Notes under the pieces: model-generated
Databases searched by the model: none
What the model saw: only the letters and a program-made list of their open reading frames with translations
What the model was told of the DNA's origin: nothing
In this document: positions 23,069 to 42,695 of the stretch, one piece after another
Layout of the letters: each line of letters opens with the position of its first letter
Numbering within the stretch: position 1 is the first letter of the stretch
Translations under genes and position numbers: made by a program
NCBI GenBank assembly: GCA_046497565.1
Contig: JAWOFK010000079.1
Location: forward strand, 1 to 47,537
DNA length: 47,537 bases
Reading direction: 5' to 3'
DNA from: Dehalococcoidia bacterium
Lineage (GTDB): Bacteria > Chloroflexota > Dehalococcoidia > GIF9 > AB-539-J10

Positions 23069-23165
23069 GGGAGCGCATGAGTCCCGGTGGGCTTCGCGGA
23101 CTTCAAATCCGTCGGGGGGCATCGAAAATGTCCTCGGTGGGTTCGACTCCCATGCGCTCCCGCCA
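23069..23165 (+). tRNA. selC: tRNA-Sec (anticodon TCA)
   Basis: 8-bp acceptor stem GGGAGCGC/GCGCTCCC, CT-TCA-AA loop, long variable arm, GTTCGACTC T arm, GCCA end; adjacent to selB. Confidence 0.96.
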
Positions 23166-23167
23166 CC

Positions 23168-25027
23168 TCACTGGTCCGGTTTCTGCCGCAGCCGCCGCTC
23201 ATCGCCGACACGGTGTGTAATCTTCCTCTCGTCCAGGTACTCTAAGAGGGCTTGAGCGTACTTACGGCTGGTGCCGAACAGGTCTCTGACCTCGGCCAGG
23301 GTCACCTTGCCCTGTTCTTTCATATGGTCGGTGATTCTCTGTACCATTTCATCATAGGCGGGAGCAGCAAAAACAACGCTCTCACTGACCTTCACTACCT
23401 TACCCTGCTCAACCAGCAGATTGACCAGGTCAGGCTCGGGTCTGAGGTCGGTGGGTGGGGCATATGGATTCTCAGCCAGGGAGCGCAGGAAGGCGTCGAT
23501 TTTTTCCTGTTGTTCCGGGCTGAGGCGAATCTGGTGGGAAGGAAGGCGAACAGATGCTTTCTCTTCTACCAGAACTCCACCCTCGGAAAGTCTCTGTAGC
23601 ACAGCGGCAGAAGGCAAGTTCAGCTTGCTTCTAAGCTCCACTTTGGGCATGCCAGGGCGGAGGGGGTATCTGTGGTGATAGTCCTTGAGTATGTTCGCCG
23701 CCTTTTCCATAACATGCTGCCACCCCGCTCTGGTGAAGAGGAGACGATGCTCCCCCTCGCCTATTGCCACCACCTGTTCCTGCTGAACGAGGCTGTCGAT
23801 TGCTCCCTGTGCCTCGCCGGCGGGCAGGTCGCATTGGAGCAAAAAGGATGCCTGCTCCACCGGTTGTTTTGTTTCCAATGTCGTCATAATGACCTCGTGC
23901 GCTGTGCCGCTCTCTCTGACATTAAGCCTTTGAATAATGGCGGAACGGAAGCGGCGATGACGGCCGGTATGAGGAACAACGATATTGCCACCTCCCAGCG
24001 TATCTCTGGAAGAACGAATGATAAAGCGGTCGTTCTTGACCACCGCCACCGGTCTGTCCAGGGTCAGTTGAGCCCAACCGTCCTCACTGGGCTTAAGTTC
24101 CTCTTTGTCCAGCATACGGACTTTGGCAACCGCCTCAGCGGCTCCTGTGTAAAAGCTAACGGTGGCATTGTGGCGCAGGGGACGCTGAACATATGGGAGA
24201 AGGTGAAGCCTGACATCCACCATGGTAGTGGGCACCAGCCAGCCCGGACTGGTGAGCACATCACCGCGCTTCAACTGAGAGGTGGTGACACCTGTTAGAT
24301 TAGCGGCAACCCGGCTGCCGGGACTGGCGGTACCAATACGAGCCTTATGGGTCTGAAGTCCGCGCAGGCGCGACCTCAGGCCCGGCGGTATTATCTCTAT
24401 TTCCTGTCCCCGGGATAGCGAGCCATCAAGCAGTGTTCCGGTAACCACGGTTCCCGAACCGGATATGCTGAAAACGCGGTCTATCGAGAGCCGCGGTCTG
24501 CCGATATCCCTCCTTGGCTCAGTGGACTTCAAACACTCGTCAATAACGGAGATGAGCTCAGCTATGCCTTCTCCACCGAGTGCTGAAACAGCTACGACCG
24601 GTGCTTCGGATAGCGTGGTTGACCTTATCAGTTCCTCCACCTCCAGAGTGACCAGGCTCAGCAACTCCTCATCTACCAGGTCTTTCTTGGTGATAACCAC
24701 CACTCCTCTTTTTACGCCGAGCAGGTCGAGTATGGCCAGGTGTTCCCTGGTTTGAGGCATCACTCCCTCATTAGCGGCAACAATGAGCAGGGCCAGATCG
24801 ATTCCACCTACCCCTGCCAGCATGTTCTTGACGAAGCGCTCATGCCCCGGCACATCTACAATGCCCACCTCTCGCCCGCCGGGCAACGTGAGCCAGGCAA
24901 AGCCAAGGTCGATGGTCATGCCCCGCTCCTTTTCTTCACGCAACCGGTCGGGGTCTATGCCCGTCAGAGCCTGTACCAAGACCGACTTGCCGTGGTCGAT
25001 ATGGCCTGCCGTTCCCAGAACGAACAT
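23168..25027 (-). CDS. selB: Selenocysteine-specific elongation factor
   Basis: [34 protein letters not shown]-terminal [13 protein letters not shown]. Confidence 0.97.
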
Positions 25028-25040: not shown

Positions 25041-26423
25041 TCAAGAATGGCTTGTACCGGCGATTGCCTTGCGAAGTGCGTCCAGCAGAACCTCCTCTTC
25101 CTCAGGGAGGACGGAGCGCGGGTCGAGAAGCAGAAGATTCCCCTTGATGCGGCCTATGACCGGAGGGTCATAATGCCGCAGCCTTTCTGCCAGCGCCGGA
25201 GCCAAATCCGGCACCTTACCATGTCCAAGGGCGACCAGCCTGGTGGGCACGACGGCACCGGGCAGACTACCCCCTCCTATCGTGCTTTCCCCTTCAATAA
25301 CCCGGCCTGAATCACCGATAGCTTCGACCCAACGGCTGGCTCGTTCCTCTATCTGGGACAGAGGTGCTGAAATCATGCGCCACACCGGGATTGTGGTTAA
25401 TGCCTCACCCTTCAAATAGTGAACCAGTGTTGCTACAAGGCCGACAAGCCTTATTTTGTCGATTCGCACCGCCCGGGCAAGGGGGTGTTTCTTCAGCTTT
25501 TCAATGAGATCCCTCCGGCCCACAATTATTCCGGACTGGGGCCCGCCGAGTAGCTTATCCCCGGAGAAGAAAGCCAGTGCAGCGCCGAGGGCAATGCTTT
25601 GCTGGACCATAGGCTCGGGGGCAAGACCAAACTCGGTGGTGTCCAACAAACAACCGCTGCCCAGGTCATCGAAAACGGGAAGGTCATAACGATTACCCAG
25701 AGCCACCAGCTCCTCCAGACCGACGCTATGAGTGAACCCCACCACCCTGAAATTGCTGGAATGAATCCGCAGCAGCGCTGCGGTCCGCTCTCCTATCGCC
25801 TCTTCATAATCCCCGACATAGGTACAGTTGGTGGTGCCCACCTCAATCAGCTTGGCCCCGCTCTGTCGCATCACTTCAGGGATACGGAAGCCGCCGCCAA
25901 TCTCCACTGCCTGCCCCCGGGAAACGATTACCTCCTTACGTCTGGCTAAGGCGGTAAGCGCCAGCAGCACCGCCGAGGCGTTGTTATTTACCACCAGTGC
26001 CGCCTCGCTGCCGGTCAGCTGGCACAGAATTTGCTCAACATGGACCTGCCGGGAGCCCCTCAGTCCACTATCCAGGTCAAACTCCAGGTTACAGTAACCC
26101 CCTGCCACCAGGTTCATGGCTGCCGTCGCTTCTTCACTGAGCGGCGCCCGCCCCAGGTTGGTATGCAGTATCACCCCGGCGGCATTTATAACCGGACGCG
26201 GGGAGGGGCGTGACAGGGCTTGTGCCTGGACAACAATGGATTCCACTATCTCTTCTATACCGTGACCGGGCTTGCCCCGGGCTATGGCAATACGTTCCTG
26301 GTCCAGACGTTGCCGAATCAGGTAAACGAGGAAATCATGCGGGCGGGTCTCCTCAAGCTGCTTGATGCGGTCGTGGGAGAGTATTCTGTCCACACCGGGA
26401 AGGTGACGAAATTTGTTTTCCAT
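25041..26423 (-). CDS. selA: L-seryl-tRNA(Sec) selenium transferase
   Basis: [36 protein letters not shown] (PLP Lys); start taken at ATG 26423 (MENKF). Confidence 0.96.
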
Positions 26424-26530
26424 CTCAACGGATATTCTAGCACACCTCGCTTCGAAGCTCAGCTTGGCAAATCCAGTAGCCGGTGTTAGAATTCCACGAG
26501 GAGTACGAACTATAGTGACGAAGGAGCGAG

Positions 26531-27580
26531 ATGGACAAAAAGACGCCTCCACGGCTAACGGAAACTGTTAGCGGTGCCGGTTGAGCTTCTAAATTGGGTC
26601 CGGGCGACCTGAATGAAGCCTTAAGCGGCTTACCCCTGATGGATGATCCGCATGTAATCAGGGGTATGGCAAGCCTGGATGATGCCGGGGTCTACAAGCT
26701 GACCGACGACCTGGCTCTCATTCAGACGGTTGACTTCTTCACGCCTATTGTCGATGACCCCTATACCTTCGGTCAGATTGCCGCCGCCAATGCCTTGAGC
26801 GATGTATACGCCATGGGCGGCAAGCCGCTCACGGCTATGAACCTGGTTTGCTTCCCCACCAGGACCCTCGATATCTCGGTTCTGAATGGCATCCTCAAGG
26901 GGGGGCTTGATAAGATGCGGGAAGCCGGGGTGACACTGGTCGGCGGGCATAGTGTAGATGATAAGGAACTGAAGTACGGTCTTTCGGTCACCGGTATCGT
27001 GCATCCCGACCGACTGGTGACCAATGCCGGAGCCAAGGCGGGAGACAAGCTAATACTCACCAAGCCATTGGGAACCGGCATTATAGGCACGGCACTGAAA
27101 GCCGGATTGGTTGATGAGAAGACCGTGGAGAAGTTCACCAGGTGTATGACCACTTTGAATGACCGGGCTTCAGAGCTGATGCAGGAGTTCGGAGTTCATG
27201 CCTGTACCGACATAACCGGCTTTGGTCTTCTGGGGCACGCCTGCCAAATGGCCGAGAACAGCCAGGTAGGCATCAGGATGTATCTTGCTTCAATCCCATA
27301 CTTTCCCGAAGCACTGGACTTCGCCCGGCAGGGGCTATGCCCGGGGGGATTATACCGGAACAAGGAATTTTACTCGAGCAGAGTGGAATTCAGCCCGGAA
27401 GTGCCTGAAGACATGGTGCAAGTCCTGTTCGACGCTCAGACCTCGGGTGGTCTGCTAATTTCGCTACCCCCTGAGCAGGCGGAACTTGTGCTACAGAGAT
27501 TGCACGAATCTGGCGCTCAACATGCAGCTATAGTTGGGGAAGTGACCAAGAGCCCGGCAGCCAGAATTTTGGTAAAATAG
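26531..27580 (+). CDS. selD: Selenide, water dikinase, selenoprotein (Sec at TGA 26582-26584)
   Basis: RBS AAGGAG then MDKKTPPRLTETVSGAG-U-ASKLGPGDL continuing in frame into the listed ORF; DDAGVY, QTVDFFTP, GGHS, DAQTSGGLL. Confidence 0.95.
26585..26619 (+). promoter_or_regulatory. SECIS element of selD
   Basis: GCTTC..GGGTC-CGGGC-GACCT..GAAGC stem-loop immediately after the TGA. Confidence 0.75.
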
Positions 27581-27699: not shown

Positions 27700-28662
27700 T
27701 TGTTGGCGGATTCCCTGCCATACTTGAAATTGAAGGAGCAGTGTCTGTTGCATAACCGGCAGTACACCAAATTTGGGCAAGAAATAGAGCGGTGTACCCG
27801 TCTATATGAAGGATTTGCTGACGCAGCGCCCTTTGTAAAAGCGGTATATGAATGTGTTGACAGGTTCCGCCAAGACCACCCGATAACTCCACAGCCGGCA
27901 GTTGACCCTCAAGAAGCCGCCGATATGCTCAGGGCCGGCAGGTCTCTGGAAGTAAATCCTGCCCTCGATACCGAAGCTGCAGTCGAGTTGCTCATAAGAA
28001 TAGGCGAGGCTCTGGTTGAGGCGAATCCTGAGCTTGAAACAACCATGAGGGTGGTGGAAGAAAAGCTTGAGCAGTTCCTATTGAATTCCCCCGACAAAGT
28101 AAGCAAGGAGGATATGTGGGGTCTGTGTCAGGTGCTGGTCAGAGAGACCGAACTGGAACAGGACCTGGCCACGTTTCTTTTTTCTACGACGCTATCTTAT
28201 TTCTACAGAGAGCACCTACAGGGGACAGCCGACGTTCTGCGCACAGACCTCTGGCAAGGCGGGAATTGTCCATTATGCGCAGAAAAGCCTCATTATGGTC
28301 TCCTGCGTCCCAAAGACGGTGCCAAGGAACTGGAGTGCTGGCTTTGTGAAACTACATGGGTGCACTCCCGCATCAAGTGTCCATTCTGCGGTAATGAAGA
28401 GCAAGAGGACCTCGGCTATTTCACCGTCGAGGACCAGGAAATATGCCGGGTCAGCTTCTGCCAGCGATGCCGCCAGTATTTGAAGATAATCGATGGGCGC
28501 AAGTTCGATGCCAGCGGAGGTATTATCTTAAGCATCCATAACCTCGCTTCGCTTTCTCATGATTTACTGGCCAGACAGGAAGGTTTTGCGCCGGGCTCCG
28601 GTTTGGAGTGGGTCAATCAACAGGAGATAACCGACAGGCGCGAAGTTGTTGAAAAATGGTGA
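27700..28662 (+). CDS. fdhE: Formate dehydrogenase accessory protein
   Basis: CPLC, CWLC.TTW...RIKCPFCG, CQRC.QYLK.ID; start uncertain. Confidence 0.88.
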   Translation: MLADSLPYLKLKEQCLLHNRQYTKFGQEIERCTRLYEGFADAAPFVKAVYECVDRFRQDHPITPQPAVDPQEAADMLRAGRSLEVNPALDTEAAVELLIRIGEALVEANPELETTMRVVEEKLEQFLLNSPDKVSKEDMWGLCQVLVRETELEQDLATFLFSTTLSYFYREHLQGTADVLRTDLWQGGNCPLCAEKPHYGLLRPKDGAKELECWLCETTWVHSRIKCPFCGNEEQEDLGYFTVEDQEICRVSFCQRCRQYLKIIDGRKFDASGGIILSIHNLASLSHDLLARQEGFAPGSGLEWVNQQEITDRREVVEKW

Positions 28663-28709
28663 ATCAGGCTATATAATAGCACGAATCTAGAAGAGCATAG
28701 GAGGCGCAT

Positions 28710-31700
28710 ATGACTCTGGAAGTAACAAGGCGAGGGTTTTTCAAACTCAGCGGTGCAACTGCGGCTGCTGCTGCATTGACCGCAGTAGGCGTGCGTAAGG
28801 TATCCGCCGCTACAGGGGAGCCACTACGCATCAGGTACACAAAGGAATACCATACTGTCTGCACCTTCTGCGGAGTGGGCTGTGGGGTTATATGTAATGT
28901 TCAGGATGGCGTGATTGTCAACGCTGAGGGTGATCCGGATCATCCCATCAACGAGGGCACTCTGTGCAGCAAGGGTAGCTCGCACTACAACATCTCCTAC
29001 ATCTATGATGAAAAAGGCGTACCGAGGCCCAATCCCAAGCGGCTGACCCATGTTCTGTACCGTGCCCCCGGCAGCAACAGCTATGAAGTCAAGGATTGGG
29101 ACTGGGCGCTGGACACTATTGCTGAGCGGATCAAAGACACCCGCGACAGAAGCCTGGTTGAGTCGGTAAGTGTCGATGGCAAGCAGGTAACCGTAAACCG
29201 GACGGAAGCCATCGGCTGGCTGGGCAGCGCTTTCTGCACCGACGAAGAGAACTATCTGTTCCACAAGATGGGCCGGGCCATGGGGGTGATCAATATCGAT
29301 CACTGCGCCCGCCTCTGACACTCTACCACGGTCGCCGGTCTCGGCGCCACATTCGGTAGAGGTTGCATGACCAACCACTGGATTGACTACCGCAACACAG
29401 ATGTCTTTATGAATATCGGCGGCAATACTGCCGAGAACCATCCCGTTTCTATGAAATGGATTGAGAAGGCCCGGGAAACCAAGGGAGCCAAGCTTATAGT
29501 AGTCGACCCCCGTGTTTCGCGCACCGCCGCAGTGGCGGATCTTCACGTGCGCATACGTCCCGGTACGAACATTGCATTTCTGGGCGGACTCATGAATTAC
29601 ATACTCCAGAATGAGCTCTACCACAAAGAGTACGTGGAGCATTACACCAACGCTTCTTTCCTGATTGAGGAAGGGTTCGATTTCAACGAGGAATTCGGTC
29701 TTTTCTCCGGTGTTGAGGATGACCCGGTGCGCAGCGCCAAGAAATACGACCGGCAAACATGGCAGTACAGGAAAGATGAAGGTGGAAGCATACTGAAGGA
29801 CCCGACCCTGGAGGACCCACACTGCGTCATGCAGTTAATGAAGAAACACTACAGCAGATACACCATGGAGAATGTCAGCAAGATCACCGGCGCTTCTCCA
29901 GAGTCTCTGCAGCAAGCATACGCGCTATTCAGCACTACCGGTCAGCCCGGCAAAGCCGGTAGCATTCTCTATGCCATGGGTATTACCCAGTTTACCCACG
30001 GTGCGCAGAATGTGCGGGCAGTTGCCATGGTGCAGTTGCTCCTGGGCAACATGGGTATTGCCGGGGGTGGAGTAAATGCCCAGCGGGGCCAGTCCAACGT
30101 GCAGGGTTCAACGGATATGGCCATACTCTACCATATCATCCCCGGATACATGGCCACTCCTCAGCAGGCGAAGCACGCTACCCTGGCCGATTATCTTGAG
30201 GTTGAAACACCGGCTACGGGCTGGTGGTCCAACAAGCCCAAATACCTGGTTAGCCTGCTCAAAGCTTTCTATGGCGATAATGCCACTGCGGCTAATGAGT
30301 TCGCCTACCAGTGGCTGCCCAAGCTGGACGGCCTTGACCATTCGCACATCGCCATGTATCGGGATATGGGCGAGGGCAAGGTGGAAGGATTCATCTGCTG
30401 GGCCGACAACCCGGCTGTATCCGGACCGAGCGCCTCGGCAAAACGCAACTATCAGAAGAACCTCAAGTGGCTGGTATCTGTGGATATGTTTGAAAATGAA
30501 ACCGCTTCCTTCTGGCAAGCCCCCGGAATGAACCCCGCTGAAATTGATACTGAGGTCTTCATTCTGCCGGCTGCCGCCGGTTATGAACGCGAGGGCAGCA
30601 AGGCCAACAGCGGCCGCTGGATCCAGTGGGCCTGGAAGTGCCAGGACCCACCCGGAGAAGCCAAGTCAGACCTGTGGATTGTCAATGAGCTGTTCAAGAG
30701 GCTGCAAAAGCTTTATGAAACTAAGGGCGGTGTTGTTCCGGAGCAGATCAGCAAGATGTTCTGGGACTACGATGGCCCCAACGGCGAAATAGACGTCGTC
30801 AAGGTCTGCAAAGACGTTAATGGTTACAGAGTTAATGATGGCTCTCTGGTGACCAACTTCGTCGGTTTGCAGGCTGATGGCTCGACTGCCTGTGGCAACT
30901 GGCTCTACAGTGGTTACTACAACAACTACGATAATCCGGCCACCAAGCACCGGGTCAGAGAGATAGAGGGGATCGGTTCCAACCTGGGCTGGTCCTTTGC
31001 CTGGCCTCTCAACAGGCGCATTGTTTATAACCGTGGGTCCTGCGACCCGGAAGGCAAACCCTGGAACCCGAACGCTGCCGTTATCTGGTGGGATGCAGCC
31101 CAGCAGAGATGGGTCGGTAACGATATACCGGACATTCCGGGCACCTGGACTTTGAAGCAGTCGACAGAGAATCCATTCATTATGCTGCCGGAGGGCGTGG
31201 GCCGGCTCTTCTCAATTGGAGCACTGGCTGACGGTCCTTTGCCCACCCATTACGAACCGGCGGAAAGCCTTGTGCCGAACCTGCTATATCCGCAGGCTAC
31301 CTATAACCCGGTCAGCCAGAGGTTTTATGAGGACCATACGGTGGAAACCGATGCCGAACGGGCCAGATATCCCTATATCATTACCACTTACCGCGTGGTC
31401 GAGCACTACCAGTCGGGCATCGTGACCCGCAACATACCCTGGCTGAACGAACTGATGCCGGAGATCTTCGTCGAGCTCAGTGAGGAACTGGCCGCTGAAC
31501 TGGGAATTGAGAACGGAGATTGGGTTCTATTAGAGAGCAAGCGCCTTTACAAGGATGGCACGCAGGGCAATATCAAGGTTAAAGCCTGCGTTACCAGGCG
31601 TATCCAGCCGATGATGATTAACGGGGAGAAGAGACACGTTGTGGGGTTACCCTGGCACTGGGGCTACAAAGGCTTGAGTACGGGGGCCATTGCCAACGAC

Positions 31701-31778
31701 TTGAGCCCCTCGGTTGGAGATGCAAATACGACTATTCCTGAGTCCAAGGCGTTTTTGTGCAATGTAAGGAGGGCATAA
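28710..31778 (+). CDS. fdhA: Tat-exported Mo/W formate dehydrogenase alpha subunit, selenoprotein (Sec at TGA 29316-29318)
   Basis: Twin-Arg TRRGFFK; CTFCGVGC..C cluster; DHCARL-U-HSTTVAGL read in frame through the TGA joins ORFs 28710-29318 and 29367-31778; RGQSNVQG; WPLNRR (FdnG type). Confidence 0.96.
29321..29361 (+). promoter_or_regulatory. SECIS element of fdhA
   Basis: Lower stem CTCTACC/GGTAGAG, apical CGCCG-GTCT-CGGCG directly 3' of the TGA. Confidence 0.75.
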
Positions 31779-31781
31779 TAG

Positions 31782-32564
31782 ATGGCTCAAGCAATGTGTT
31801 TAATTGACGCCTCCAAGTGTATCGGTTGTCGGGCATGTCAGGTGGCATGTAAGCAGTGGAATCAGTTGCCGGCTGAGGAGACGACCTTCACGGGCAGCTA
31901 TGAAAACCCGCCGCGGTTTTCCAGCAACACGTGGTGCCGGGTTGTCTTCCGCGAGCACGGGGACAACGGCAGGGTTGACTGGCTGCTGTCGAAACAGGGC
32001 TGCATGCACTGCACCGATGCAGCCTGTATGCAGGCCTGTCCGGTCGGTGCTATCTACCGCACCGCCTTCGGTACGGTCAATATCGATCAGCTCAAGTGCA
32101 TCGGCTGCAACTACTGTGTCGTGGCCTGCCCGTTCGGCGTAATCGGCTTCGACCGCCGTACCAACAAAGCAAGGAAGTGCACATTCTGTGTCGACCGCTT
32201 AGAAAACGGACTACAGCCGGCCTGTGCTTTTGTGTGCCCGACAGGCTCCATAACCTTCGGTGATGCATCGGACCTTGTTCCACAGGCGATGGATAGAGTC
32301 GATCAGCTCAGAGCTGCCGGCAAGGTCAGTGCCAATGTATACGGTCTGGAAGAGGTTGACGGAACGGCCATGCTTTATGTGCTGGCCGATGAGTCTGAAA
32401 AATATGGGCTTCCTGCTGATCCCGAGGTATCGTTACAGACCCGTGTCTGGGACGTCATCTTCAAGCCTGTGCGCGCACTCGTCGTGGTGGCAGTGCTCTT
32501 TGGACTATGGGCCACCCGTTCGCGGAGCAAGCAACTTGAACAGGCCAGGAGAGAATCCAAATAA
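31782..32564 (+). CDS. fdhB: Formate dehydrogenase 4x[4Fe-4S] beta subunit with C-terminal membrane anchor (FdnH-like)
   Basis: CIGCRACQVAC, CMHC..AC..ACP, CIGCNYC..ACP, CTFC..PAC..CP; hydrophobic ALVVVAVLFGLW. Confidence 0.92.
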   Translation: MAQAMCLIDASKCIGCRACQVACKQWNQLPAEETTFTGSYENPPRFSSNTWCRVVFREHGDNGRVDWLLSKQGCMHCTDAACMQACPVGAIYRTAFGTVNIDQLKCIGCNYCVVACPFGVIGFDRRTNKARKCTFCVDRLENGLQPACAFVCPTGSITFGDASDLVPQAMDRVDQLRAAGKVSANVYGLEEVDGTAMLYVLADESEKYGLPADPEVSLQTRVWDVIFKPVRALVVVAVLFGLWATRSRSKQLEQARRESK

Positions 32565-32581
32565 ACTGGGGGTGAAACAAA

Positions 32582-33898
32582 GTGGAAGTTAAACAGTTTG
32601 TCGGCGGAATTCGTGTTCCCCACTATAAGAGCTTTACTGAACACAAGGAGATTAGAGAAGCCTCTCTGCCGAAAGAGGTCACCATACCACTCTTGCAGCA
32701 TACCGGTGCTCCCAACCTGCCGCTGGTGAAAGTGGGCGATAGAGTCAAAGCGGGGCAGATGATAGGTGCTACCGACAAGTTAGTGAGCGCTCCTGTCCAC
32801 GCCAGCCTCTCCGGTACCGTAGCTGCCATAGAGCCCCGGCCCTGTTTTACCGGGGAAATGCTCCAGAGCATCGTTATCACCGTTGATAGGGACCAGGACA
32901 AACCGGAGTGGGCTGACCTTGATGTCGATAAGGTCACCAGGGAGGAAGCCGTGAAGATGGTGCGGGAAGCGGGCATTGTCGGCATGGGCGGGGCTGCCTT
33001 CCCGACAGCGGTCAAACTCAGTCCCCCGCCGGGCAAGAAGGTAGACACGCTGCTCATTAATGGATGCGAATGTGAGCCGTTCCTGACCTGCGATCACCGG
33101 CTGATGGTTGAACAGCCCGAGAAGCTGCTGCCAGGAGTCCAGTTGCTGATGAAAATGCTCGGGGTTGAGAGAGCTTACATCTGCATAGAGGGCAACAAGC
33201 CCGATGCCATCGAAGCACTGCGGCGAAAGAACGATGACCCGCGGATAGTTCTGCTGAAGATGCCCACCAAGTACCCCCAGGGTTCGGAAAAGCACCTGGT
33301 CAAAGCAGCCATCGACCGTGAAATCCCCTCCGGTGGGCTGCCGTTTGACGTGGGTGCTTTGATTCAGAATGTGGGCACCTGCGTTGCCATTTACGAAGCA
33401 GTCAAACATAGAAAACCGCTTATCGAGCGGGTTGTAACCGTAACCGGACAGAACATCAGGGATCCGCAGAACCTGCTGGCCAAAATCGGCACCCCGCTCA
33501 GCCATTTGATCGCGGAGTGCGGCGGCATCGTAGAGCAGCCGGCCAAAGTCGTCGTCGGCGGACCGATGACCGGCAAAGCGCAGCATACCCTTGACGCGCC
33601 GGTGGTTAAGGGAACCACCGGAGTAGTCGTGCTTCCGCCGGAGCTGGCCATCGAAGACATGGAATACTCTGACTGCGTGCGCTGCTGCAAGTGTGTCGAG
33701 CACTGTCCCATGATGCTCTACCCCAACGAGATAAGCATTTACTGTGAGGCAGGCATGGTTGCAGAGGCAGCAAAATGGAATACGATGGACTGCATTGAGT
33801 GTGGAATATGCGCCTATGTATGTCCCTCCAAGCGGCCTATCGTCCGGTGGGTCCAGCGCACCAAGCCATTAATCCAGCAGCTTCAGAGCAGAAAGTGA
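32582..33898 (+). CDS. rnfC: RnfC (FMN/NAD-binding, 2x[4Fe-4S])
   Basis: PLLQHTGAP, HASLSGTV, GIVGMGGAAFPT, NGCECEPFLTCD, KYPQGSEK, GGPMTG, CIECGICAYVCPS. Confidence 0.94.
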   Translation: MEVKQFVGGIRVPHYKSFTEHKEIREASLPKEVTIPLLQHTGAPNLPLVKVGDRVKAGQMIGATDKLVSAPVHASLSGTVAAIEPRPCFTGEMLQSIVITVDRDQDKPEWADLDVDKVTREEAVKMVREAGIVGMGGAAFPTAVKLSPPPGKKVDTLLINGCECEPFLTCDHRLMVEQPEKLLPGVQLLMKMLGVERAYICIEGNKPDAIEALRRKNDDPRIVLLKMPTKYPQGSEKHLVKAAIDREIPSGGLPFDVGALIQNVGTCVAIYEAVKHRKPLIERVVTVTGQNIRDPQNLLAKIGTPLSHLIAECGGIVEQPAKVVVGGPMTGKAQHTLDAPVVKGTTGVVVLPPELAIEDMEYSDCVRCCKCVEHCPMMLYPNEISIYCEAGMVAEAAKWNTMDCIECGICAYVCPSKRPIVRWVQRTKPLIQQLQSRK

Positions 33899-33930
33899 TG
33901 AAAGTACGTCGAAAAAGGAGGACCTAAGTC

Positions 33931-34911
33931 GTGAGTACTACCGAAAAGCTCGTATTCTCAGCATCCCCTCACCTTAAAGATAAAGGAACCGTGTCAACAG
34001 CCATGCGGGATGTATTCATCGCCCTGTTACCCGTCACGGCGGCTGCCATATACTTCTTTCGCTGGTATGCTGTTTTCACCATTGCGGTTTCTCTAATTAC
34101 CGCCGTGCTAACCGAGCTCCTGTTCAGGAGACTGATGAGCAAAAAGCCCAGCCTGAATGACTGGAGTGCTCTGGTGACCGGTCTATTCGTGGCGCTCCTG
34201 TTTCCGGCTACCGCCCCGTGGTGGACGGTAGTCATTGCCAGCTTTCTTGCCATCGGCATTGCCAAGGAGCTGATGGGAGGGCTGGGCTGGAACCTCTTCA
34301 ATCCGGCTCTTTTTGGCAGGGTGGCTGTGATCCTCCTGGCGCCCTGGCTGGCCTATGTTTCAGGGTGGTTTGCACCGCTGAGCGTCAACCTCGGCCCGGT
34401 AGATGCTCTAACCCAGGCCACGCCGCTGGCCATGCTGCACATGGGTGCGGCGGAGATGCCAGCTGTGAGCCGGCTTTTCGTAGGCTTTCCTGCCGGGGCC
34501 CTATGTGAAGTGTCGCCACTGCTGGTACTCGTCGGGGCAGCCTACCTTTTCTACAGGGGACATATCACCTGGCGTATTCCGGCATCCATTCTGGCTACGG
34601 TTCTGGTTCTGACCGCAATTTTTGGGCAAAACCCTATATACCACATTGCTACCGGGGGAATCATGATCGGTGCATTCTTTATGGCCACCGACTGGGTAAC
34701 CAGCCCGTTTACTGACAGGGGCAAATTAATCTTCGGCGTCGGGATCGGGGTTCTGATTGTCGTTTTCCGGCTCGCGCTTGCGCCGACAGAAGGGGTTGCT
34801 TTTGCCATCTTGATCATGAATGCTTTTGTGCCCCTGCTTAATAGGAAGACAGCGCGCCCGCAGTTCGGTCACATTAAAGCCGTTGCTGTTCCGATGGCCG
34901 AGAAGGAATAA
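33931..34911 (+). CDS. rnfD: RnfD membrane subunit (flavinylation target)
   Basis: SPH, GGLGWNLFNPA, DALTQATPL (FMN-Thr motif), GAFFMATDWVTSP, EGVAFAILIMN. Confidence 0.94.
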   Translation: MSTTEKLVFSASPHLKDKGTVSTAMRDVFIALLPVTAAAIYFFRWYAVFTIAVSLITAVLTELLFRRLMSKKPSLNDWSALVTGLFVALLFPATAPWWTVVIASFLAIGIAKELMGGLGWNLFNPALFGRVAVILLAPWLAYVSGWFAPLSVNLGPVDALTQATPLAMLHMGAAEMPAVSRLFVGFPAGALCEVSPLLVLVGAAYLFYRGHITWRIPASILATVLVLTAIFGQNPIYHIATGGIMIGAFFMATDWVTSPFTDRGKLIFGVGIGVLIVVFRLALAPTEGVAFAILIMNAFVPLLNRKTARPQFGHIKAVAVPMAEKE

Positions 34912-34961
34912 GCGGTTAGGCGAAATCGTATAACGAAGGAAGGTAAGGAAAGGAGGGGACT

Positions 34962-35141
34962 ATGCTGGGTCGTCCGGGACCATGGGAGATCGCGCTTATC
35001 CTGGTGATTGTCTTGATTGTGTTCGGCGTTGGCAAACTCCCGCAGGTAGGCGAGGCTATCGGTAAGGGAATGCGGGCGTTCCGCAAGGCGCAGACCGGCC
35101 AAGATGAGGCCGATGAGGATAAGCATAAGGAAACAAAATAA
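34962..35141 (+). CDS. tatA: TatA (59 aa, absent from the ORF track)
   Basis: RBS AGGAGG; [43 protein letters not shown]. Confidence 0.93.
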
Positions 35142-35278
35142 TCCAGGAATACTACTGCCAGCCAAGCTGCTACTAGCTGAACTGTACCTTCAACTCGTAA
35201 CTCTACGGGGGTACAGGTCGCCATATCAGGAATAACTCAGGTTAAGGGGAGAACGCGGCGAGGTAAGGGGAGCGAATA

Positions 35279-35488
35279 ATGAATCTTATTGGCGTGGGGG
35301 AACTATTACTGCTCCTCATCATTGCTTTGCTGGTATGGGGGCCGGGAAAGATAGCGGAGTTCGGCAAGACGCTGGGGAAAACGATACGCTCTGTAAACAA
35401 AGCGAGCTCTGACCTGACAGCACGGGTAACCAGAGAATTCGACATAGAAGAAGAAGCCCGCCCACCTAACCCGGAACACAGGAATTAG
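35279..35488 (+). CDS. tatB: TatA/TatB-family subunit
   Basis: IGVGELLLLLIIALLVWGPGKIAEFGKTLGK. Confidence 0.75.
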   Translation: MNLIGVGELLLLLIIALLVWGPGKIAEFGKTLGKTIRSVNKASSDLTARVTREFDIEEEARPPNPEHRN

Positions 35489-35563
35489 TCATCAGGAAAA
35501 ACGGGGTTAGTAACCGCTGGGAGGAAAAGACTGCAATATCCGGGTTCATATACTATGTGAGGA

Positions 35564-36310
35564 ATGAATGTGAGAGGACCAGCCACGGGCGAGGCCCAGA
35601 AACCCGTGTCCATTCTCGTGCACTTGGCTGAGCTGCGAAAGCGTCTGCTCAGGAGTGTAATCGTCGTGGCTATTGCCACCGTCCTGGCCTTCGTGTTTTA
35701 TCACCAAATATTTGATATCCTGCTCTATCCCGCCGGCGAGATGGACCTCATCTTCGTGGAGATGACCGAGATGATCGGCACCATCTTCCGAGTGTGCCTG
35801 GCTGTCGGCATCATGCTGGCCGTCCCCTACCTGACCTATGAGTTCATTATGTTCGTCTCGCCAGCCCTCACGTCCAGGGAGAAGAGGTACGTCTATTTTA
35901 TCCTGCCCTGGATTGCTATCATGTTTGCTGCGGGAGTTGTCTTCGGCTATTTCATTCTGACTCCCCCGGCGATCAAGTTTTTGCTCGGTTTTGGGGGCGA
36001 TATAGCCGATGCGCAGATAAGAATTGGCAACTATATTCCGGTGGTGACCAAGCTGCTTCTGGTCACCGGGCTCATTTTTGAGGTGCCGGTGTTGACCACG
36101 TTCCTGGCCAGGATCGGCGTCGTCTCCGGCAACTGGCTGGCCAGCAAGCGTAAGATAGTAATAGTCGGCGCGTTTCTCCTGGCTGCCATACTTACGCCTC
36201 CCGACATTCTAACCCAGATAATGCTGGGCCTGCCACTGATTGCCCTCTACGAACTCAGCATCTGGCTGGCGCGGCTCGTCGGCAAGAAGAGGCAGAGTGC
36301 CCAAGCCTAG
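35564..36310 (+). CDS. tatC: Tat translocase TatC
   Basis: HLAELRKRL, FVSPAL..EK, FEVP, AAILTPPD, LYELS. Confidence 0.95.
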   Translation: MNVRGPATGEAQKPVSILVHLAELRKRLLRSVIVVAIATVLAFVFYHQIFDILLYPAGEMDLIFVEMTEMIGTIFRVCLAVGIMLAVPYLTYEFIMFVSPALTSREKRYVYFILPWIAIMFAAGVVFGYFILTPPAIKFLLGFGGDIADAQIRIGNYIPVVTKLLLVTGLIFEVPVLTTFLARIGVVSGNWLASKRKIVIVGAFLLAAILTPPDILTQIMLGLPLIALYELSIWLARLVGKKRQSAQA

Positions 36311-38456: not shown

Positions 38457-40646
38457 ATGGAAAGACCAGAGAAACGAAACGATGAAGGCTTCGCGCAGGT
38501 AGGTATCGGTCAAACCGCCGCTACCATCCTGGGAACTGTCTTCTGGCTTATTGTGGCCTTGATGCTGCACCCGGTAGCGTACGGTCATCTGGCCTGGTTG
38601 GTATCCATAGCAACGCTTGTCTCCGCACTCTGTGGCTTAGGTCTGGGAACGATGATAGCCACCTATTACCCAAGGGAGGAAAACAAGAGATTGCTGAGCA
38701 CCTCCGTATTCCTGACTTTGCTGGCCAGCGGCGTGGGCGGGATTGTAACTGCCGTAGTCTTGAACCTATCGGTAGATTCATCTTTGGCCACCCTGGTCGG
38801 TTTGCTGGTTGTAGCATTATCGATGTTCTCCATGGCCTTCTACTCGGAACTGGGGAAGCGAGAGTATAAGAAATACATGTGGATGTGGATAGGTGTGCGG
38901 GCGGCAACGCTGATTCTTCCATTGACCTTCTACCTGCTGTGGGGAACGGTCGCCGGATTGCTGGGAGGGATGATAGCAGGCTATTTTTTGTTCGGAACGT
39001 TGGTTCTGAAGCACCTGGGCAACGGCCTGAAATTTGCGGATGTAAGGAGAAAGACGGGTTTCTCCGCAAGGGCGTGGGCCTCCAATATGGCAATAGCTTC
39101 GCTGAACTTCCTTGATAAGATACTTATCGGCGTCCTTTTCCCGCTCGGCTTCCTGGCAATCTATCAATTCAGTTTCCGGATTTTCCTCCTTCTGGCGATT
39201 CTGCCCAACACCCTGTTCTTTTACCTGCTCCCCGAGAGGTCCGGCGGGGGCGATGTCAAGAAACTCGAGAGAGCTGGAATCCTCCTGTCTGTAGCCCTGG
39301 CCGTTGCCATCTTCTTCCTTGCGCCCTACATCACTTCTCATGTCTTCCCCGGCTACCGCGAAGGTATCGACACGATAAGGATAATGGGCCTTGCCATAAT
39401 CCCGGCGACCATCGCCAGGATAAGGTCCTCGCGATTGTTTTCGGAAGAGAAGCCGGCCGTGGTTCTCGGCTCGAACCTGTTCGGCCTGGCGATCGGGATT
39501 ACGTGCATAATCATGACCTTCACCCAGGGACTGGGACTCATAGGCTTGGCAGTCAGCATGCTGGCCAGCCAGGTCGGACTGCTCGGCGGGCTTTTTCTCA
39601 TCCCCAAGCTCCTCAGATTTGGCTTTCCGGGGAGAATAGGGTTGAGCTTCATTGTGGTAATCGTGGCATCTGCCCTGATTATGAGTACTCTCGGCATCAT
39701 TTCCCCACAGATAACCGTAAGAAAGGACAGGGTGATAGGAACCGGTGGGGCAATGGATACCAGGGTAACCATCACAGTATTGGCCGATGACGAAGAAGAC
39801 GTCAGACAGGCCAAAGAAGCAATCAGTGCGGCTTTCCGCGAGATTGACCGAGTTGAGAAACTCATGAGCGCCACCGATCCGGATAGCGAGATTTACCGGC
39901 TAAACAACAGCGGAACGCAATGGGTGGAGCTATCACCGGAAGTCATCTATATCCTGAAGAAGTCTCAGGAGTACAGCGTCCTGACAGACGGTTGTTTCGA
40001 TGTTACGGTGAAGCCGCTGGTCGATTTCTGGATGAAGGAGGTGAAGAGGTCGGGCAAGATGCCGACGGGTGACGAATTATCCCAATACCTTGAGCTGGTT
40101 GATTACCGGAATCTGATAATAGATGAGGACAACAACAGGGCCAGGTTCAACAGGGACGGAATGGAGGTTACTCTCGGTGGTATAGCTAAGGGATATGCCG
40201 TCGACCGAGCCTGTGAGGTTCTGAAGGGCGGCGGCATCGAGGAGGCTCTGGTAGATATCGGCGGCGACATCAGAGCCATAGGAACAAAGTCGTGGAGGAT
40301 TGGCATACGTGATCCCCGTGCTGAAGAGGTGCTGGTAGACATCGAGTTGGAGAATAAGGCCATAGCTACATCCGGCGACTACGTAAGGTATCACCTCCTG
40401 AAAGGAGCCGAGCTGGTTCATCACATCATTAACCCGAAAACCGGTGCACCGGCGAGAGATTCCATAAGCGTCACCATTGTCGCCCAAGACAGCCTAACTG
40501 CCGACGCTCTCAGTACAGGGGTTTTTGTTATCGGGCCCGAGAAAGGAAGGGTGTTATTGGATTTAATCAGGGTTGGGGGGTTGATAGTCGGTCCCGAAGG
40601 AGAGATAATAACATCGGAATACTGGGGTTACGACATAGCCCGGTGA
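38457..40646 (+). CDS. apbE: Fusion: Wzx/MOP-superfamily membrane transporter (N-term) + ApbE FAD:protein FMN transferase (C-term)
   Basis: About 410 aa multi-TM region with flippase-like start and DKILIG motif; then AMDT, DSEIYRLN, FDVTV.PL, LGGIAKGYAVD, GGDI, ATSGDY, HHIINPKTG, ADALST in one uninterrupted frame. Confidence 0.9.
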   Translation: MERPEKRNDEGFAQVGIGQTAATILGTVFWLIVALMLHPVAYGHLAWLVSIATLVSALCGLGLGTMIATYYPREENKRLLSTSVFLTLLASGVGGIVTAVVLNLSVDSSLATLVGLLVVALSMFSMAFYSELGKREYKKYMWMWIGVRAATLILPLTFYLLWGTVAGLLGGMIAGYFLFGTLVLKHLGNGLKFADVRRKTGFSARAWASNMAIASLNFLDKILIGVLFPLGFLAIYQFSFRIFLLLAILPNTLFFYLLPERSGGGDVKKLERAGILLSVALAVAIFFLAPYITSHVFPGYREGIDTIRIMGLAIIPATIARIRSSRLFSEEKPAVVLGSNLFGLAIGITCIIMTFTQGLGLIGLAVSMLASQVGLLGGLFLIPKLLRFGFPGRIGLSFIVVIVASALIMSTLGIISPQITVRKDRVIGTGGAMDTRVTITVLADDEEDVRQAKEAISAAFREIDRVEKLMSATDPDSEIYRLNNSGTQWVELSPEVIYILKKSQEYSVLTDGCFDVTVKPLVDFWMKEVKRSGKMPTGDELSQYLELVDYRNLIIDEDNNRARFNRDGMEVTLGGIAKGYAVDRACEVLKGGGIEEALVDIGGDIRAIGTKSWRIGIRDPRAEEVLVDIELENKAIATSGDYVRYHLLKGAELVHHIINPKTGAPARDSISVTIVAQDSLTADALSTGVFVIGPEKGRVLLDLIRVGGLIVGPEGEIITSEYWGYDIAR

Positions 40647-41664: not shown

Positions 41665-41886
41665 TTACATATCTACCAGATTGTATCAATTATCCCCCAC
41701 GCAGCACCGACGCGGTTTATCGCTGAAAACCGCCCCGCTCGTAATCAAAGCTAAATGGCGTAATCAACTCTTTATTCTGACGCAGAAGCACTGCGCTCCC
41801 CAAAAAGTCTTTTCAAACCAAGAACGTTGTGCTATATTAGGCATCGTACCTTTTTAAAGCCAATGAAGCCTCAAAGCAAGGCGAAT

Positions 41887-42417: not shown

Positions 42418-42695
42418 ATATCTTTTTGACGGGTACAGCTATATTTGTGGTGGTAAACGCCTTCATATGCCTGTACAGGGCGATAAAAGGCCCCACCATA
42501 CAGGACCGGCTGCTCACTCTCGCCATAGTCGGTAGCAGTATGTTAGCGGTTTTGGTACTGCTAGCCTCCATTTTCAAGAGCTCTATCTATCTGGATGTTG
42601 CCATGCTGTTCGTGCTGTTGAATTTCATCGTCATGATCGTTGTATCGCGCTATCTGGAAACATACGACAAGGAGGTCAACAGGAGTGATCGCTGA
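42414..42695 (+). CDS. mrpF: Na+/H+ antiporter subunit F
   Basis: YRAIKGPTIQDR, YLDVA, SRYLE. Confidence 0.88.
   Translation: MNIFLTGTAIFVVVNAFICLYRAIKGPTIQDRLLTLAIVGSSMLAVLVLLASIFKSSIYLDVAMLFVLLNFIVMIVVSRYLETYDKEVNRSDR

Follow-up and report, generated by a model that had tools for sequence, protein, structure and literature searches.

What does an exported formate dehydrogenase exchange electrons with when its genes are followed by rnfC and rnfD, and by no other Rnf subunit? The question is raised by positions 27700–36310 of the window (the whole 47,537-nucleotide stretch of Dehalococcoidia DNA that was analysed), at which open-reading-frame calls placed fdhE-like, fdhA, fdhB, rnfC, rnfD, tatA, tatA/B-like and tatC genes, all on the forward strand. 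The features considered are the following:

23069..23165, + strand, tRNA-Sec (selC), anticodon tca (ARAGORN)
23168..25027, - strand, selB, selenocysteine-specific elongation factor (Pfam GTP_EFTU, SelB-wing_2/3, Beta-barrel_SelB)
25041..26552, - strand, selA, selenocysteine synthase (TIGR00474, 543 bits; cut-off 268)
26594..27580, + strand, selD, selenophosphate synthetase (TIGR00476, 377 bits; the match begins at profile position 16, and the real start may lie upstream)
27700..28662, + strand, fdhE-like maturation protein with a Cys-rich C-terminal half (TIGR01562, 60 bits, cut-off 188; Pfam FdhE_C and FdhE_central weak)
28710..31778, + strand, fdhA, Tat-exported selenocysteine formate dehydrogenase catalytic subunit of FdnG type (TIGR01553, 1162 bits, cut-off 814; TAT_signal and Molybdopterin domains)
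29317..29364, + strand, SECIS-like hairpin, starting in the last two TGA bases (29317–29318) and continuing downstream (RNA fold -22.8 kcal/mol, z -1.9)
31782..32564, + strand, fdhB, FdnH-type four-cluster iron-sulfur subunit with one C-terminal membrane helix, FKPxR...GLW (Fer4_11 and related domains)
32582..33898, + strand, rnfC, cytoplasmic NAD(H)/FMN subunit (TIGR01945, 515 bits, cut-off 246; RnfC_N, Complex1_51K, SLBB and Fer4 domains)
33931..34911, + strand, rnfD, membrane flavoprotein (PF03116, 330 bits; TIGR01946, 273 bits, cut-off 207)
34962..35141, + strand, tatA (TIGR01411, 60 bits; cut-off 54)
35279..35488, + strand, second TatA/B-family gene, TatA and TatB not separable (PF02416, 48 bits; NCBIfam models all under cut-offs)
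35564..36310, + strand, tatC (TIGR00945, 195 bits; cut-off 133)
38457..40646, + strand, ApbE flavin transferase with a polytopic membrane domain joined to its N-terminus (PF02424, 284 bits, residues 433–702)

The four genes fdhA, fdhB, rnfC and rnfD are real, intact and co-oriented, with intergenic gaps of 3 bp (fdhA/fdhB), 17 bp (fdhB/rnfC) and 32 bp (rnfC/rnfD). An earlier sequence-only reading of the locus had described this layout, including a Tat-exported selenocysteine FdhA and a membrane-anchored FdhB, and the gene calls bore it out. Neither promoter-like nor terminator-like signals here clearly outnumbered those of shuffled sequences, so the operon boundaries were inferred from spacing alone. 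Contigs from four RNA libraries (two studies) matched fdhA, fdhB, rnfC, rnfD and tat with zero or few differences, some of them spanning the fdhA/fdhB and fdhB/rnfC junctions, which gives a weak hint of expression given possible DNA carry-over.

FdhA bears the twin-arginine signal RRGFF, and tatC was the sole TatC found in the genome (a single tblastn match). FdhB scored 227 bits against TIGR01582, short of the 335 bits set as cut-off; among solved structures the best relative was E. coli FdnH (1KQF_B, E 2e-66), with the alignment extending into the helix, and its C-terminal tail is kept in homologs. The RnfC translation shows two [4Fe-4S] motifs, both CxxCxxCxxxCP. The in-frame TGA of fdhA (29316–29318, residue 203) was read as selenocysteine: 41 of 43 homologs covering the position have TGA and the other two a Cys codon, and the operon is flanked by tRNA-Sec, selB, selA and selD. 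The hairpin adds moderate support only, with 6 of 200 shuffles folding equally well.

The host genome (1.87 Mb, 102 contigs, 92% complete, 4.75% contamination) belongs to a fatty-acid-oxidising, Wood–Ljungdahl organism, and the window holds beta-oxidation genes. Across this 92%-complete genome, profile searches returned no match to RnfA/E (PF02508), RnfG FMN_bind (PF04205), cytochrome b (PF01292) or NrfD (PF03916), whereas RnfD (PF03116) was matched once, by the operon's own copy. Neither MenA nor MqnA, of menaquinone synthesis, was found in it, and tblastn of the genome with RnfG/E/A/B queries, taken from the canonical operon of a genome of the same class, yielded nothing above 40 bits. Gene absences in a 92%-complete draft are not proof; still, the quinone independence and the lack of a cytochrome b or NrfD subunit proposed by the sequence-only reading fit these results, and the orphan rnfGEAB that would have contradicted it was seen by neither profile nor tblastn in this draft.

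RnfC and RnfD might nevertheless be subunits of an ordinary six-subunit Rnf, with rnfGEAB located elsewhere or left unassembled, since the genome is a draft in 102 contigs and the window's contig stops at the window's end. We regard this as very improbable, given the missing RnfA/E, RnfG and RnfB signals and the pattern in other carriers of the RnfD type. RnfA/E was present elsewhere in 38 of 40 carrier genomes checked, and in 19 of the 20 RnfA/E regions fetched it came with its own rnfC and rnfD, the twentieth being cut by a contig end after rnfE; all six rnf genes were seen in 18 of the 20, and one short contig showed C, D, E and A. The Fdh-linked pair is thus an extra paralog. Two other Dehalococcoidia carriers (G401 and G405) also lack RnfA/E.

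Phylogeny likewise argues against a split Rnf. A branch with SH-aLRT 100 set the 22 canonical-operon sequences apart in the RnfD tree (104 rows), a separation partly built into a sample whose loci were picked by similarity to the window RnfD, and in the RnfC tree label changes were at their minimum number. The separate clade anticipated from the sequence was therefore seen with both proteins. Two residues mark the RnfD clade, E113 (82/82; Q in 16 of 22 canonical sequences) and W255 (82/82). The Fdh-linked RnfCD is a distinct paralog that moves with the iron-sulfur subunits of periplasmic enzymes and not with RnfG/E/A/B.

The survey of fdhAB-rnfCD synteny that the sequence-only reading had called for covered, outside this genome, the 80 loci whose RnfD matched best (55–84% identity), many of them from close kin in similar habitats, so that they do not amount to 80 independent observations. 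The carriers were labelled Dehalococcoidia, Syntrophomonadaceae and other Bacillota, Halobacteroidaceae, Dethiobacteria and Desulfovibrionaceae, along with single MAGs labelled Thioalkalivibrio and Hydrogenedentota. At 59 of the 80 loci, an adjacent gene on the same strand encodes an FdhB with 40% identity or more, in several orders, chiefly fdhE-A-B-rnfC-D (26 loci), fdhA-B-rnfC-D (11), rnfC-D-fdhB (6), fdhB-rnfC-D (4), fdhA-fdhE-rnfC-D-fdhB (4), rnfC-D-fdhA-B (3) and fdhE-rnfC-D-fdhA-B (2). An fdhE-like homolog was found at 35 of the 80 (tblastn, E <= 1e-5). No RnfG, E, A or B match lay beside any of the 80, whereas the same queries recovered RnfA and RnfE at 23 of 23 canonical-operon loci (L090–L092, L094–L113). 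As judged from gene neighbourhoods, the association of fdhAB with rnfCD is not by chance, and the functional link proposed for the two pairs gains support from synteny conserved across phyla and gene orders.

The enzyme beside rnfCD can change. At 5 of the 80 loci, the same rnfCD clade neighbours a Tat-signal HybA/FdhB-like iron-sulfur protein with [NiFe] hydrogenase small and large subunits, and at other loci its neighbours are an iron-sulfur subunit and a different molybdoenzyme with a NarJ-like chaperone. The constant neighbour is the iron-sulfur subunit: wherever the sequence extends several kb to either side of rnfCD, a partner of FdnH/HybA type is present, and at L085, which has a molybdoenzyme, the contig ends before any iron-sulfur gene. 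This points to rnfCD as a membrane unit, linked to NAD(H) and used in modular fashion, onto which FdnH/HybA-type subunits would dock. The search for FdhB-RnfD or FdhB-RnfC fusion proteins found none, an absence that is weak evidence; its sole fusion was RnfD-RnfG.

These patterns also bear on whether FdhAB and RnfCD are mere neighbours, FdhAB using another acceptor and RnfCD independently carrying electrons from NADH to some acceptor outside. Published "NQR/RNF-like" two-subunit systems, proposed in the available text to send NAD(P)H electrons to varied outside acceptors (PMC8238504, PMC10979944), lend this some plausibility. We consider it improbable, because the adjacency outlasts at least four gene-order rearrangements in several phyla, the FdnH/HybA-type subunit stays constant while the partner enzyme varies, and no cytochrome b, NrfD or quinone that FdhAB could use was found in the genome.

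Judged throughout from neighbouring genes, trees and conserved motifs, FdhA, FdhB, RnfC and RnfD probably form one quinone-free membrane complex linking formate/CO2 outside to NAD+/NADH inside. FdhA-FdhB would be exported by Tat and tethered through the C-terminal helix of FdhB, whose four [4Fe-4S] clusters would pass electrons to a covalent FMN at the outer face of RnfD. Along its whole length the window RnfD could be aligned with that of C. tetanomorphum (7ZC6_D, E 1e-72), and it retains the flavinylated threonine, T164, together with N124, E193 and D254 (equivalents N124, E185 and D248); T164 is present in 82/82 clade members. The ApbE gene 3.5 kb downstream, the only match in the whole genome, would attach the FMN to T164, and, as the genome lacks an FMN_bind protein, RnfD is its only recognisable substrate. 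From there, electrons would follow the route of the solved Rnf structure, first to the riboflavin of RnfD, then across both [4Fe-4S] clusters and the FMN of RnfC, and finally to NAD+. FdhB would thus occupy the place of RnfG in Rnf, and RnfD that of cytochrome b (FdnI) in Fdh-N. We know of no characterised case in which an iron-sulfur protein hands electrons straight to the flavin of RnfD. The path described for C. tetanomorphum Rnf runs from the RnfG FMN to the RnfD FMN (<5 Å), riboflavin (7.7 Å), RnfC cluster 2 (11.7 Å), FMN and NAD+, and the N- and C-terminal arms of RnfD fix RnfC to RnfD (PMC9588780). A full Rnf exists alongside the pair in 38 of the 40 carriers, and its RnfG or RnfB may take part in cross-talk there.

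With electrons crossing the membrane, and with protons consumed at one face and set free at the opposite one, the proposed complex would be electrogenic even without a pump: membrane potential would drive NADH to formate, and formate to NAD+ would build potential. We lean slightly towards formate export from NADH in this organism. The same complex running in reverse, as a quinone-free redox loop that takes up external formate, reduces NAD+ inside for the Wood–Ljungdahl pathway and biosynthesis, and builds membrane potential, is possible although we rate it rather unlikely. Periplasmic [NiFe] hydrogenases of the HybA-subunit kind, as in the hydrogenase variant, are typically uptake enzymes. Many carriers are labelled alkaliphiles or come from MAG series with Tindallia, Anoxynatronum, Alkaliphilus and Dethiobacteria, and a high external pH would, from proton stoichiometry, make formate oxidation outside more reducing. 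The genome's MetVF-RnfC2-type methylene-THF reductase genes and cytoplasmic NuoEF-type Fdh also fit formate-using acetogenesis. However, the standard potentials (about -420 mV for CO2/formate, about -320 mV for NAD+/NADH) do not pay at neutral pH for two charges moved against a full membrane potential, and the beta-oxidation genes of the window weigh on the same side. The only labelled-substrate study to name the complex, a preprint, places it in acetate oxidation to formate in its available text.

If the complex is as proposed, formate outside would probably be tied to NAD(H) inside without quinones, by an arrangement spread over several bacterial phyla. The idea of joining Fdh to rnfCD is already in print, the arrangement is uncharacterised, and the Dehalococcoidia host is a new member. 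In the text available, the adjacency was noted in 2016 for unFirm_1, with RnfC and Fdh both detected in a metaproteome (PMC5080403), and a preprint of 2025 depicts an "FdhAH-RnfCD complex" for Natronincolaceae JAAZJW01_1 (bioRxiv 10.1101/2025.07.15.664484). A comparable cluster named by the sequence-only reading for Thermacetogenium phaeum was not supported: by the available text, that organism lacks Rnf genes save one weak RnfC-like gene (PMC5924567, PMC6295475).

Likened by description, one of the closest known systems is the "FdhAH-RnfCD" of uncultured Bacillota, a formate dehydrogenase beside rnfC and rnfD only, presented in the available preprint text as a membrane-bound complex using NADH to make formate. 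Relatives of the window RnfD occur in Bacillota MAGs at 56–73% identity, but the window host has a Dehalococcoidia-type genome in which no canonical Rnf was found; the papers, as available, make metagenome statements without survey, phylogeny or enzymology. The NQR/RNF-like systems share the concept of a cut-down NqrB/RnfD-type membrane protein that moves electrons in one direction, linking NAD(P)H of the cytoplasm with a partner outside it. As far as their text is available, the RnfD-like protein is fused to a PF00175 NAD-binding domain, has an RnfG/NqrC-like flavoprotein partner and has lost the flavinylation threonine (PMC8238504, PMC10979944), whereas the window has a separate, full-length RnfC, retains T164 and lacks an FMN_bind protein; formate dehydrogenase and RnfC do not occur in the available main text on these systems (Meheust et al. 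2021; Huang et al. 2024). With Rnf itself (RnfABCDGE; 7ZC6, 9ERI, 8AHX), the window shares an RnfC and an RnfD exceeding curated subfamily cut-offs and a nearby ApbE gene. It differs in its separate paralog clade and in lacking RnfA, E, G and B, and hence a ferredoxin side and a second membrane crossing, and the outside electron partner is predicted to be an iron-sulfur protein in place of the flavoprotein RnfG. E. coli formate dehydrogenase-N (FdnGHI, 1KQF) resembles it in the Tat-exported selenocysteine catalytic subunit, the four-cluster FdnH-like subunit with a C-terminal helix, and the redox-loop logic of charge separation across the membrane. Unlike FdnGHI, the window has neither an FdnI cytochrome b nor a quinone, and the inside acceptor would be NAD+ rather than menaquinone, so that the redox span would be far smaller.

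The cluster comprises eight genes on the + strand of the window, spanning positions 27700–36310.

Genes of the fdh–rnfCD–tat cluster, with scores and cut-offs of curated family models
27700–28662, + strand, fdhE-like gene
28710–31778, + strand, fdhA (TIGR01553, 1162 bits, cut-off 814; TAT_signal)
31782–32564, + strand, fdhB (TIGR01582, 227 bits, cut-off 335)
32582–33898, + strand, rnfC (TIGR01945, 515 bits, cut-off 246)
33931–34911, + strand, rnfD (TIGR01946, 273 bits, cut-off 207)
34962–35141, + strand, first TatA/B-family gene
35279–35488, + strand, second TatA/B-family gene
35564–36310, + strand, tatC

Open reading frames and family scores confirmed the gene layout described in the sequence-only reading, including its gaps of 3 bases between fdhA and fdhB, 17 between fdhB and rnfC, and 32 between rnfC and rnfD. 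FdhA, which carries an RRGFF twin-arginine signal, exceeded the cut-off of the formate dehydrogenase-N alpha model. The translation of fdhB contains a hydrophobic helix at its C-terminus and four groups of cysteines; among solved structures it is closest to Escherichia coli FdnH (1KQF_B; E = 2e-66, residues 2–242), and its score lay under the curated FDH-beta cut-off. RnfC and RnfD both exceeded their curated Rnf subfamily cut-offs, the former with Complex1_51K, SLBB and Fer4 domains and two [4Fe-4S] cysteine motifs, and the latter as a separately encoded protein of 326 residues with PF03116 as its sole domain. A promoter-like site matching at 11 of 12 positions precedes fdhA, in a sequence whose overall promoter and terminator counts did not rise above those of shuffled controls.

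An in-frame TGA occupies residue 203 of FdhA and is followed by a histidine codon. Among the 43 homologs covering this position, TGA was found in 41 and a cysteine codon in two. A hairpin lies 3′ of the TGA (−22.8 kcal/mol, z = −1.9), and genes for tRNA-Sec, selB, selA and selD are located directly upstream of the fdhE-like gene and fdhA. Homolog codons, hairpin and sel genes agree in supporting a predicted reading of the codon as selenocysteine.

Missing genes were sought in the whole draft genome (1.87 Mb, 102 contigs, 92% complete, 4.75% contamination), of which the window is one entire contig, and the absences are valid only within the limits of that completeness. Within this scope, profile searches returned no match for RnfA/RnfE (PF02508), RnfG-type FMN_bind proteins (PF04205), FdnI/HyaC-type cytochrome b (PF01292) or NrfD (PF03916), and neither MenA nor MqnA-type menaquinone genes were found. 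With RnfG, RnfE, RnfA and RnfB from the canonical operon of a genome of the same class as queries, tblastn against the draft found nothing above 40 bits, the absence of RnfB resting on tblastn and those of RnfA/RnfE and RnfG on both profile and tblastn. No rnfGEAB set that could partner this RnfC and RnfD was thus found elsewhere in the host, and the lack of an FdnI/NrfD quinone subunit, claimed from the window, was borne out genome-wide. The gene rnfD is present in a single copy.

A second RnfC-like gene, on contig C37 of the same genome, was considered as part of the system and rejected. It encodes a 675-residue MetV(DUF5981)–RnfC fusion (C37:46000–60000, L093) in a methylene-THF reductase context, with metV, metF, DUF3786, a NuoE-like gene, two NuoF-like genes and a cytoplasmic NuoG-type formate dehydrogenase (FdhA) as neighbours. 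This context matches that of the NADH-dependent methylene-THF reductase of Acetobacterium woodii, and the region looks like a Wood–Ljungdahl redox island. Contig C29 (15638–16636; L115, L116) encodes a NuoD/group-4 [NiFe]-hydrogenase-like large subunit that matches PF00346 and the N-terminal part of PF00374. It is the sole candidate that this genome, which has no recognisable quinone pathway, offers for a complex of the Ech/Mbh or Nuo type.

RnfD was rare in the phylum, occurring in six of 401 genomes sampled, the present one included; the best other match in this sample was 44% identical, a genome of the same genus yielded none, and the three loci opened of the five others were ordinary apbE-rnfCDGEAB operons. 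Closer relatives (60–94% identity) were found in a large protein collection, in Dehalococcoidia and Bacillota metagenome-assembled genomes (MAGs) and in Anoxynatronum buryatiense. An alignment-based scan of species-representative genomes was then used to retain the 80 best RnfD loci (55–84% identity), which are labelled as Dehalococcoidia, Syntrophomonadaceae and other Bacillota, Halobacteroidaceae, Alkaliphilus, Tindallia, Anoxynatronum, Dethiobacteria and Desulfovibrionaceae, along with single MAGs of Thioalkalivibrio and Hydrogenedentota. In tblastn searches with the window proteins, an fdhB gene (≥40% identity) lay beside rnfCD on the same strand in 59 of the 80, so that the expected conservation of fdhAB–rnfCD synteny was found, in several gene orders.

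Gene orders at the rnfCD loci (counts of gene strings)
fdhE-fdhA-fdhB-rnfC-rnfD, 26 loci
fdhA-fdhB-rnfC-rnfD, 11 loci
fdhB-rnfC-rnfD, 4 loci
rnfC-rnfD-fdhB, 6 loci
fdhA-fdhE-rnfC-rnfD-fdhB, 4 loci
rnfC-rnfD-fdhA-fdhB, 3 loci
fdhE-rnfC-rnfD-fdhA-fdhB, 2 loci
orders with duplications, a few loci

Duplications comprised fdhAB on both flanks of rnfCD (L029), two copies each of fdhA and rnfD plus a second fdhB that seems fragmented (L078), and two rnfCD pairs (L063). The remaining 21 loci either break off at a contig end next to rnfCD or have a molybdoenzyme and iron–sulfur pair that is more distant. Among those of the 80 with several kilobases on both sides, no rnfCD without a partner was found; the contig of L085 stops before an iron–sulfur gene. 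Matches to RnfG, RnfE, RnfA or RnfB were detected by tblastn in none of the 80 loci, with the same Rnf queries recovering RnfA and RnfE in each of the 23 canonical-operon loci (L090–L092, L094–L113). A survey of longer proteins for fused RnfD forms gave one RnfD–RnfG fusion and no fusion to FdhB or RnfC, an absence that weighs little.

The same rnfCD clade also stands beside other enzymes. In five loci (L062, L063, L069, L080 and L081; for example, L069:1973–8144), rnfC-rnfD comes before a four-cluster, HybA/FdhB-like protein that has a Tat signal and shares the conserved C-terminal helix motif; next come the [NiFe] hydrogenase subunits, small and large, and hyp genes. In L070 (605–6785) and L085 (8639–14039), and partly in L082 and L083, rnfCD precedes a NarJ-like chaperone and a 783-residue molybdopterin oxidoreductase, which is only 27–30% identical to FdhA; a 243-residue iron–sulfur subunit follows in L070. 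A related molybdoenzyme and/or iron–sulfur gene lies upstream of fdh–rnfCD in L015, L065 and L088, and L070 harbours two tandem rnfCD modules, one per enzyme. The FdnH/HybA-type subunit is thus the steady neighbour of RnfCD while the catalytic subunit changes, which constitutes the strongest argument for its being the direct partner of RnfD. The most novel idea that this evidence allows, which we consider plausible though somewhat short of probable, is that the RnfCD clade is a general, quinone-independent module replacing the cytochrome b/NrfD anchor of at least three outward-facing enzymes, namely selenocysteine formate dehydrogenase, [NiFe] hydrogenase and a further molybdoenzyme. The FdnH/HybA-type subunit would dock on the RnfD flavin, and formate, H2 or another substrate outside would be tied directly to the NAD(H) pool. 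No published link between hydrogenase and RnfCD was found in the literature covered, which takes in few subscription journals.

An alternative, whereby the Fdh-linked pair is served in other carriers by orphan rnfGEAB genes, was evaluated from RnfA/RnfE genes elsewhere in these genomes. Such genes were present in 38 of the 40 carriers searched, both exceptions being Dehalococcoidia. Twenty regions were fetched, of which 18 contained all six genes rnfC-D-G-E-A-B, one was a short contig with C, D, E and A, and one was cut after rnfE. As these regions bring their own rnfCD (19 of 20), the canonical complexes hold their own RnfC and RnfD, which are 40–47% identical to the pair in the window. Comparison of these sequences marks the Fdh-linked rnfCD as an additional, paralogous pair.

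In a tree of 104 RnfD sequences, a branch with an SH-aLRT support of 100 had all 22 canonical-operon members on the same side, and the RnfC tree required the minimum number of label changes. The separate clades anticipated for both proteins were therefore observed, with the separation partly built in because the 80 loci were chosen by similarity, and with many of the carriers being kin. Clade members have E113 (82/82), compared with Q in 16 of 22 canonical RnfDs, and W255 (82/82). In a quick, unrooted analysis, the RnfD of the window grouped with three Dehalococcoidia within a set of 33 otherwise consisting of Syntrophomonadaceae and Bacillota (support 98). This nesting, together with the patchy occurrence in the phylum, suggests horizontal acquisition of the cluster, although an unrooted tree gives no direction.

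The predicted flavin site of RnfD is preserved. T164 aligns with the flavinylated-threonine region of Clostridium tetanomorphum RnfD (7ZC6_D) and is threonine in all 82 clade members, and the equivalents of N124, E185 and D248 of that structure are also kept. Two further features were set aside: a nine-residue insertion before the flavin site relative to 7ZC6_D was rejected as a clade marker, as canonical RnfDs of the same Bacillota have the same loop length, and the replacement by Leu/Cys of Asn90, which belongs to the proposed Na+ site, was uninformative, as canonical RnfDs in the sample vary there too (V, T, N). The sole ApbE flavin transferase of the genome is encoded 3.5 kb downstream of rnfD (38457–40646) and is fused to a polytopic domain of ~420 residues with weak, flippase-like Polysacc_synt similarity; a 73%-identical copy of this fusion lies near the cluster of another Dehalococcoidia genome (L011). 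Since the genome has no FMN_bind protein, RnfD is the only recognisable ApbE substrate.

In the C. tetanomorphum Rnf study (PMC9588780), electrons are described as passing from the extracellular FMN of RnfG to the FMN of RnfD (<5 Å), riboflavin (7.7 Å), cluster 2 of RnfC (11.7 Å), cluster 1, the FMN of RnfC and NAD+, with RnfC held on RnfD by the terminal arms of the latter. Based on this path and attachment, RnfC and RnfD alone would suffice as a full wire across the membrane. Tat-exported FdhAB would dock via the FdhB helix, and the membrane-proximal FdhB cluster would exchange electrons with the RnfD FMN. A complex prediction of RnfD with FdhB, each supplied as an alignment and run without controls, gave a score of 0.29, a mark of 0.32 and the outcome "no answer", which speaks neither for nor against such a contact.

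The standard potentials of CO2/formate and NAD+/NADH are about −420 mV and −320 mV, respectively. If two electrons move outward while the inside gains a proton and the outside loses one, the membrane potential would drive the reaction. It would accordingly pull the formation of formate from NADH, a kind of reverse electron transport that fits syntrophy. Oxidation of formate with NAD+ would build potential and be affordable only where formate is a stronger reductant, for example at high external pH. Export is favoured by the β-oxidation genes of the window and the acetate-oxidising context of a preprint (bioRxiv 10.1101/2025.07.15.664484), and uptake by the hydrogenase variant and the alkaliphile labels; we lean slightly toward export. 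Comparative genomics supports well the functional coupling proposed between Fdh and RnfCD, independent of RnfGEAB and quinones; physical contact, direction and ion coupling are inferred. Near-identical contigs occur in four RNA libraries of two studies, with pieces on fdhA, fdhB, rnfC, rnfD and the tat genes, some spanning the fdhA/fdhB and fdhB/rnfC junctions; they are a weak hint of expression, as contigs cannot prove a single transcript and RNA libraries may contain DNA.

Thiolases, a 3-hydroxyacyl-CoA dehydrogenase, a short-chain dehydrogenase, two AMP-forming acyl-CoA ligases and a branched-chain-type binding protein are encoded at 8426–19126 and 36422–38137, and would give the operon a context of fatty-acid or organic-acid oxidation. 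Between the β-oxidation and selenocysteine genes lie three co-oriented genes (20029–22929) for two iron–sulfur proteins (Fer4_8/Fer4_2 and Fer4_22) and a PyrK-like NAD-binding/[2Fe-2S] protein. An Mrp/Mnh-type multisubunit cation/proton antiporter operon, encoding MnhE, MrpF, MnhG, MbhD, MnhB/MbhE, MnhC and two MnhD-like subunits, extends from 41827 to 47388 and reaches the contig end. In 20 of the 80 loci, an MnhD homolog lay no further than 10 kb from rnfD, usually convergent with it; in Bacillota, where RnfD is about 66–73% identical, this homolog was only 32–37% identical. The antiporter might be the ion-handling partner of the RnfCD module; the operon could be a functional partner or merely a shared habitat trait.

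If correct, the proposal would give quinone-free anaerobes, exemplified by Dehalococcoidia-type genomes such as this one, a direct link between NADH and external formate coupled to the membrane potential, with variants linking NADH to H2 instead. Energetically, syntrophic oxidation of fatty acids and acetate hinges on the NADH–formate step, and so does interspecies electron transfer based on formate. In this system, nature would also have dissected Rnf, keeping the RnfC–RnfD arm alone. In the passages found of a 2025 RNF/NQR review (PMC12174285), two competing models place ion translocation in RnfD or in RnfA–RnfE, and Fdh-linked RnfCD is not mentioned; as the present enzyme would have RnfD without RnfA/RnfE, its transport of Na+/H+, or lack of it, bears on this choice. 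The existence of cultured carriers such as A. buryatiense (L046) makes the hypothesis testable.

In print, a 2016 study (PMC5080403) describes unFirm_1 as encoding only the Rnf subunits C and D, beside a formate dehydrogenase; its metaproteome contained both RnfC and the Fdh. 'Ca. Syntrophonatronum acetioxidans' is reported in PMC6295475 to have only RnfC, RnfD and two RnfG genes. The comparable cluster named for Thermacetogenium phaeum in the sequence-only reading is unsupported, as the same source gives this species just one weak RnfC-like gene and PMC5924567 lists it without Rnf genes. In the literature covered, which takes in few subscription journals, no further Fdh-linked RnfC/RnfD case was found, and Natronincolaceae with Fdh and Rnf appeared only in the 2025 preprint.

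Compared with canonical RnfABCDGE, the system shares RnfC, with its FMN/NADH domain and two [4Fe-4S] motifs, and the predicted covalent-FMN threonine of RnfD, whereas the genome lacks the RnfA/RnfE pair, RnfG and RnfB. With FdnGHI, it has in common a Tat-exported Mo/W-bisPGD catalytic subunit with selenocysteine; FdhB aligns with FdnH yet scores under the TIGR01582 cut-off, and the dihaem cytochrome b FdnI, which reduces quinone, is missing. The closest published concept is the two-subunit NQR/RNF-like system (PMC8238504, PMC10979944), whose main text mentions neither formate dehydrogenase nor RnfC. Its architecture is different: there, an RnfD-like protein is fused to a PF00175 NAD-binding domain, has an RnfG/NqrC-like partner and has lost the flavinylation site, whereas the window encodes an unfused RnfD that keeps T164, a separate RnfC and no FMN_bind protein. 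With the published Fdh–RnfCD clusters (PMC5080403; bioRxiv 10.1101/2025.07.15.664484), it shares an Fdh beside rnfC and rnfD only, a likeness by gene arrangement, and it is a newly found Dehalococcoidia member of this arrangement, which had been noticed in print but never characterised.
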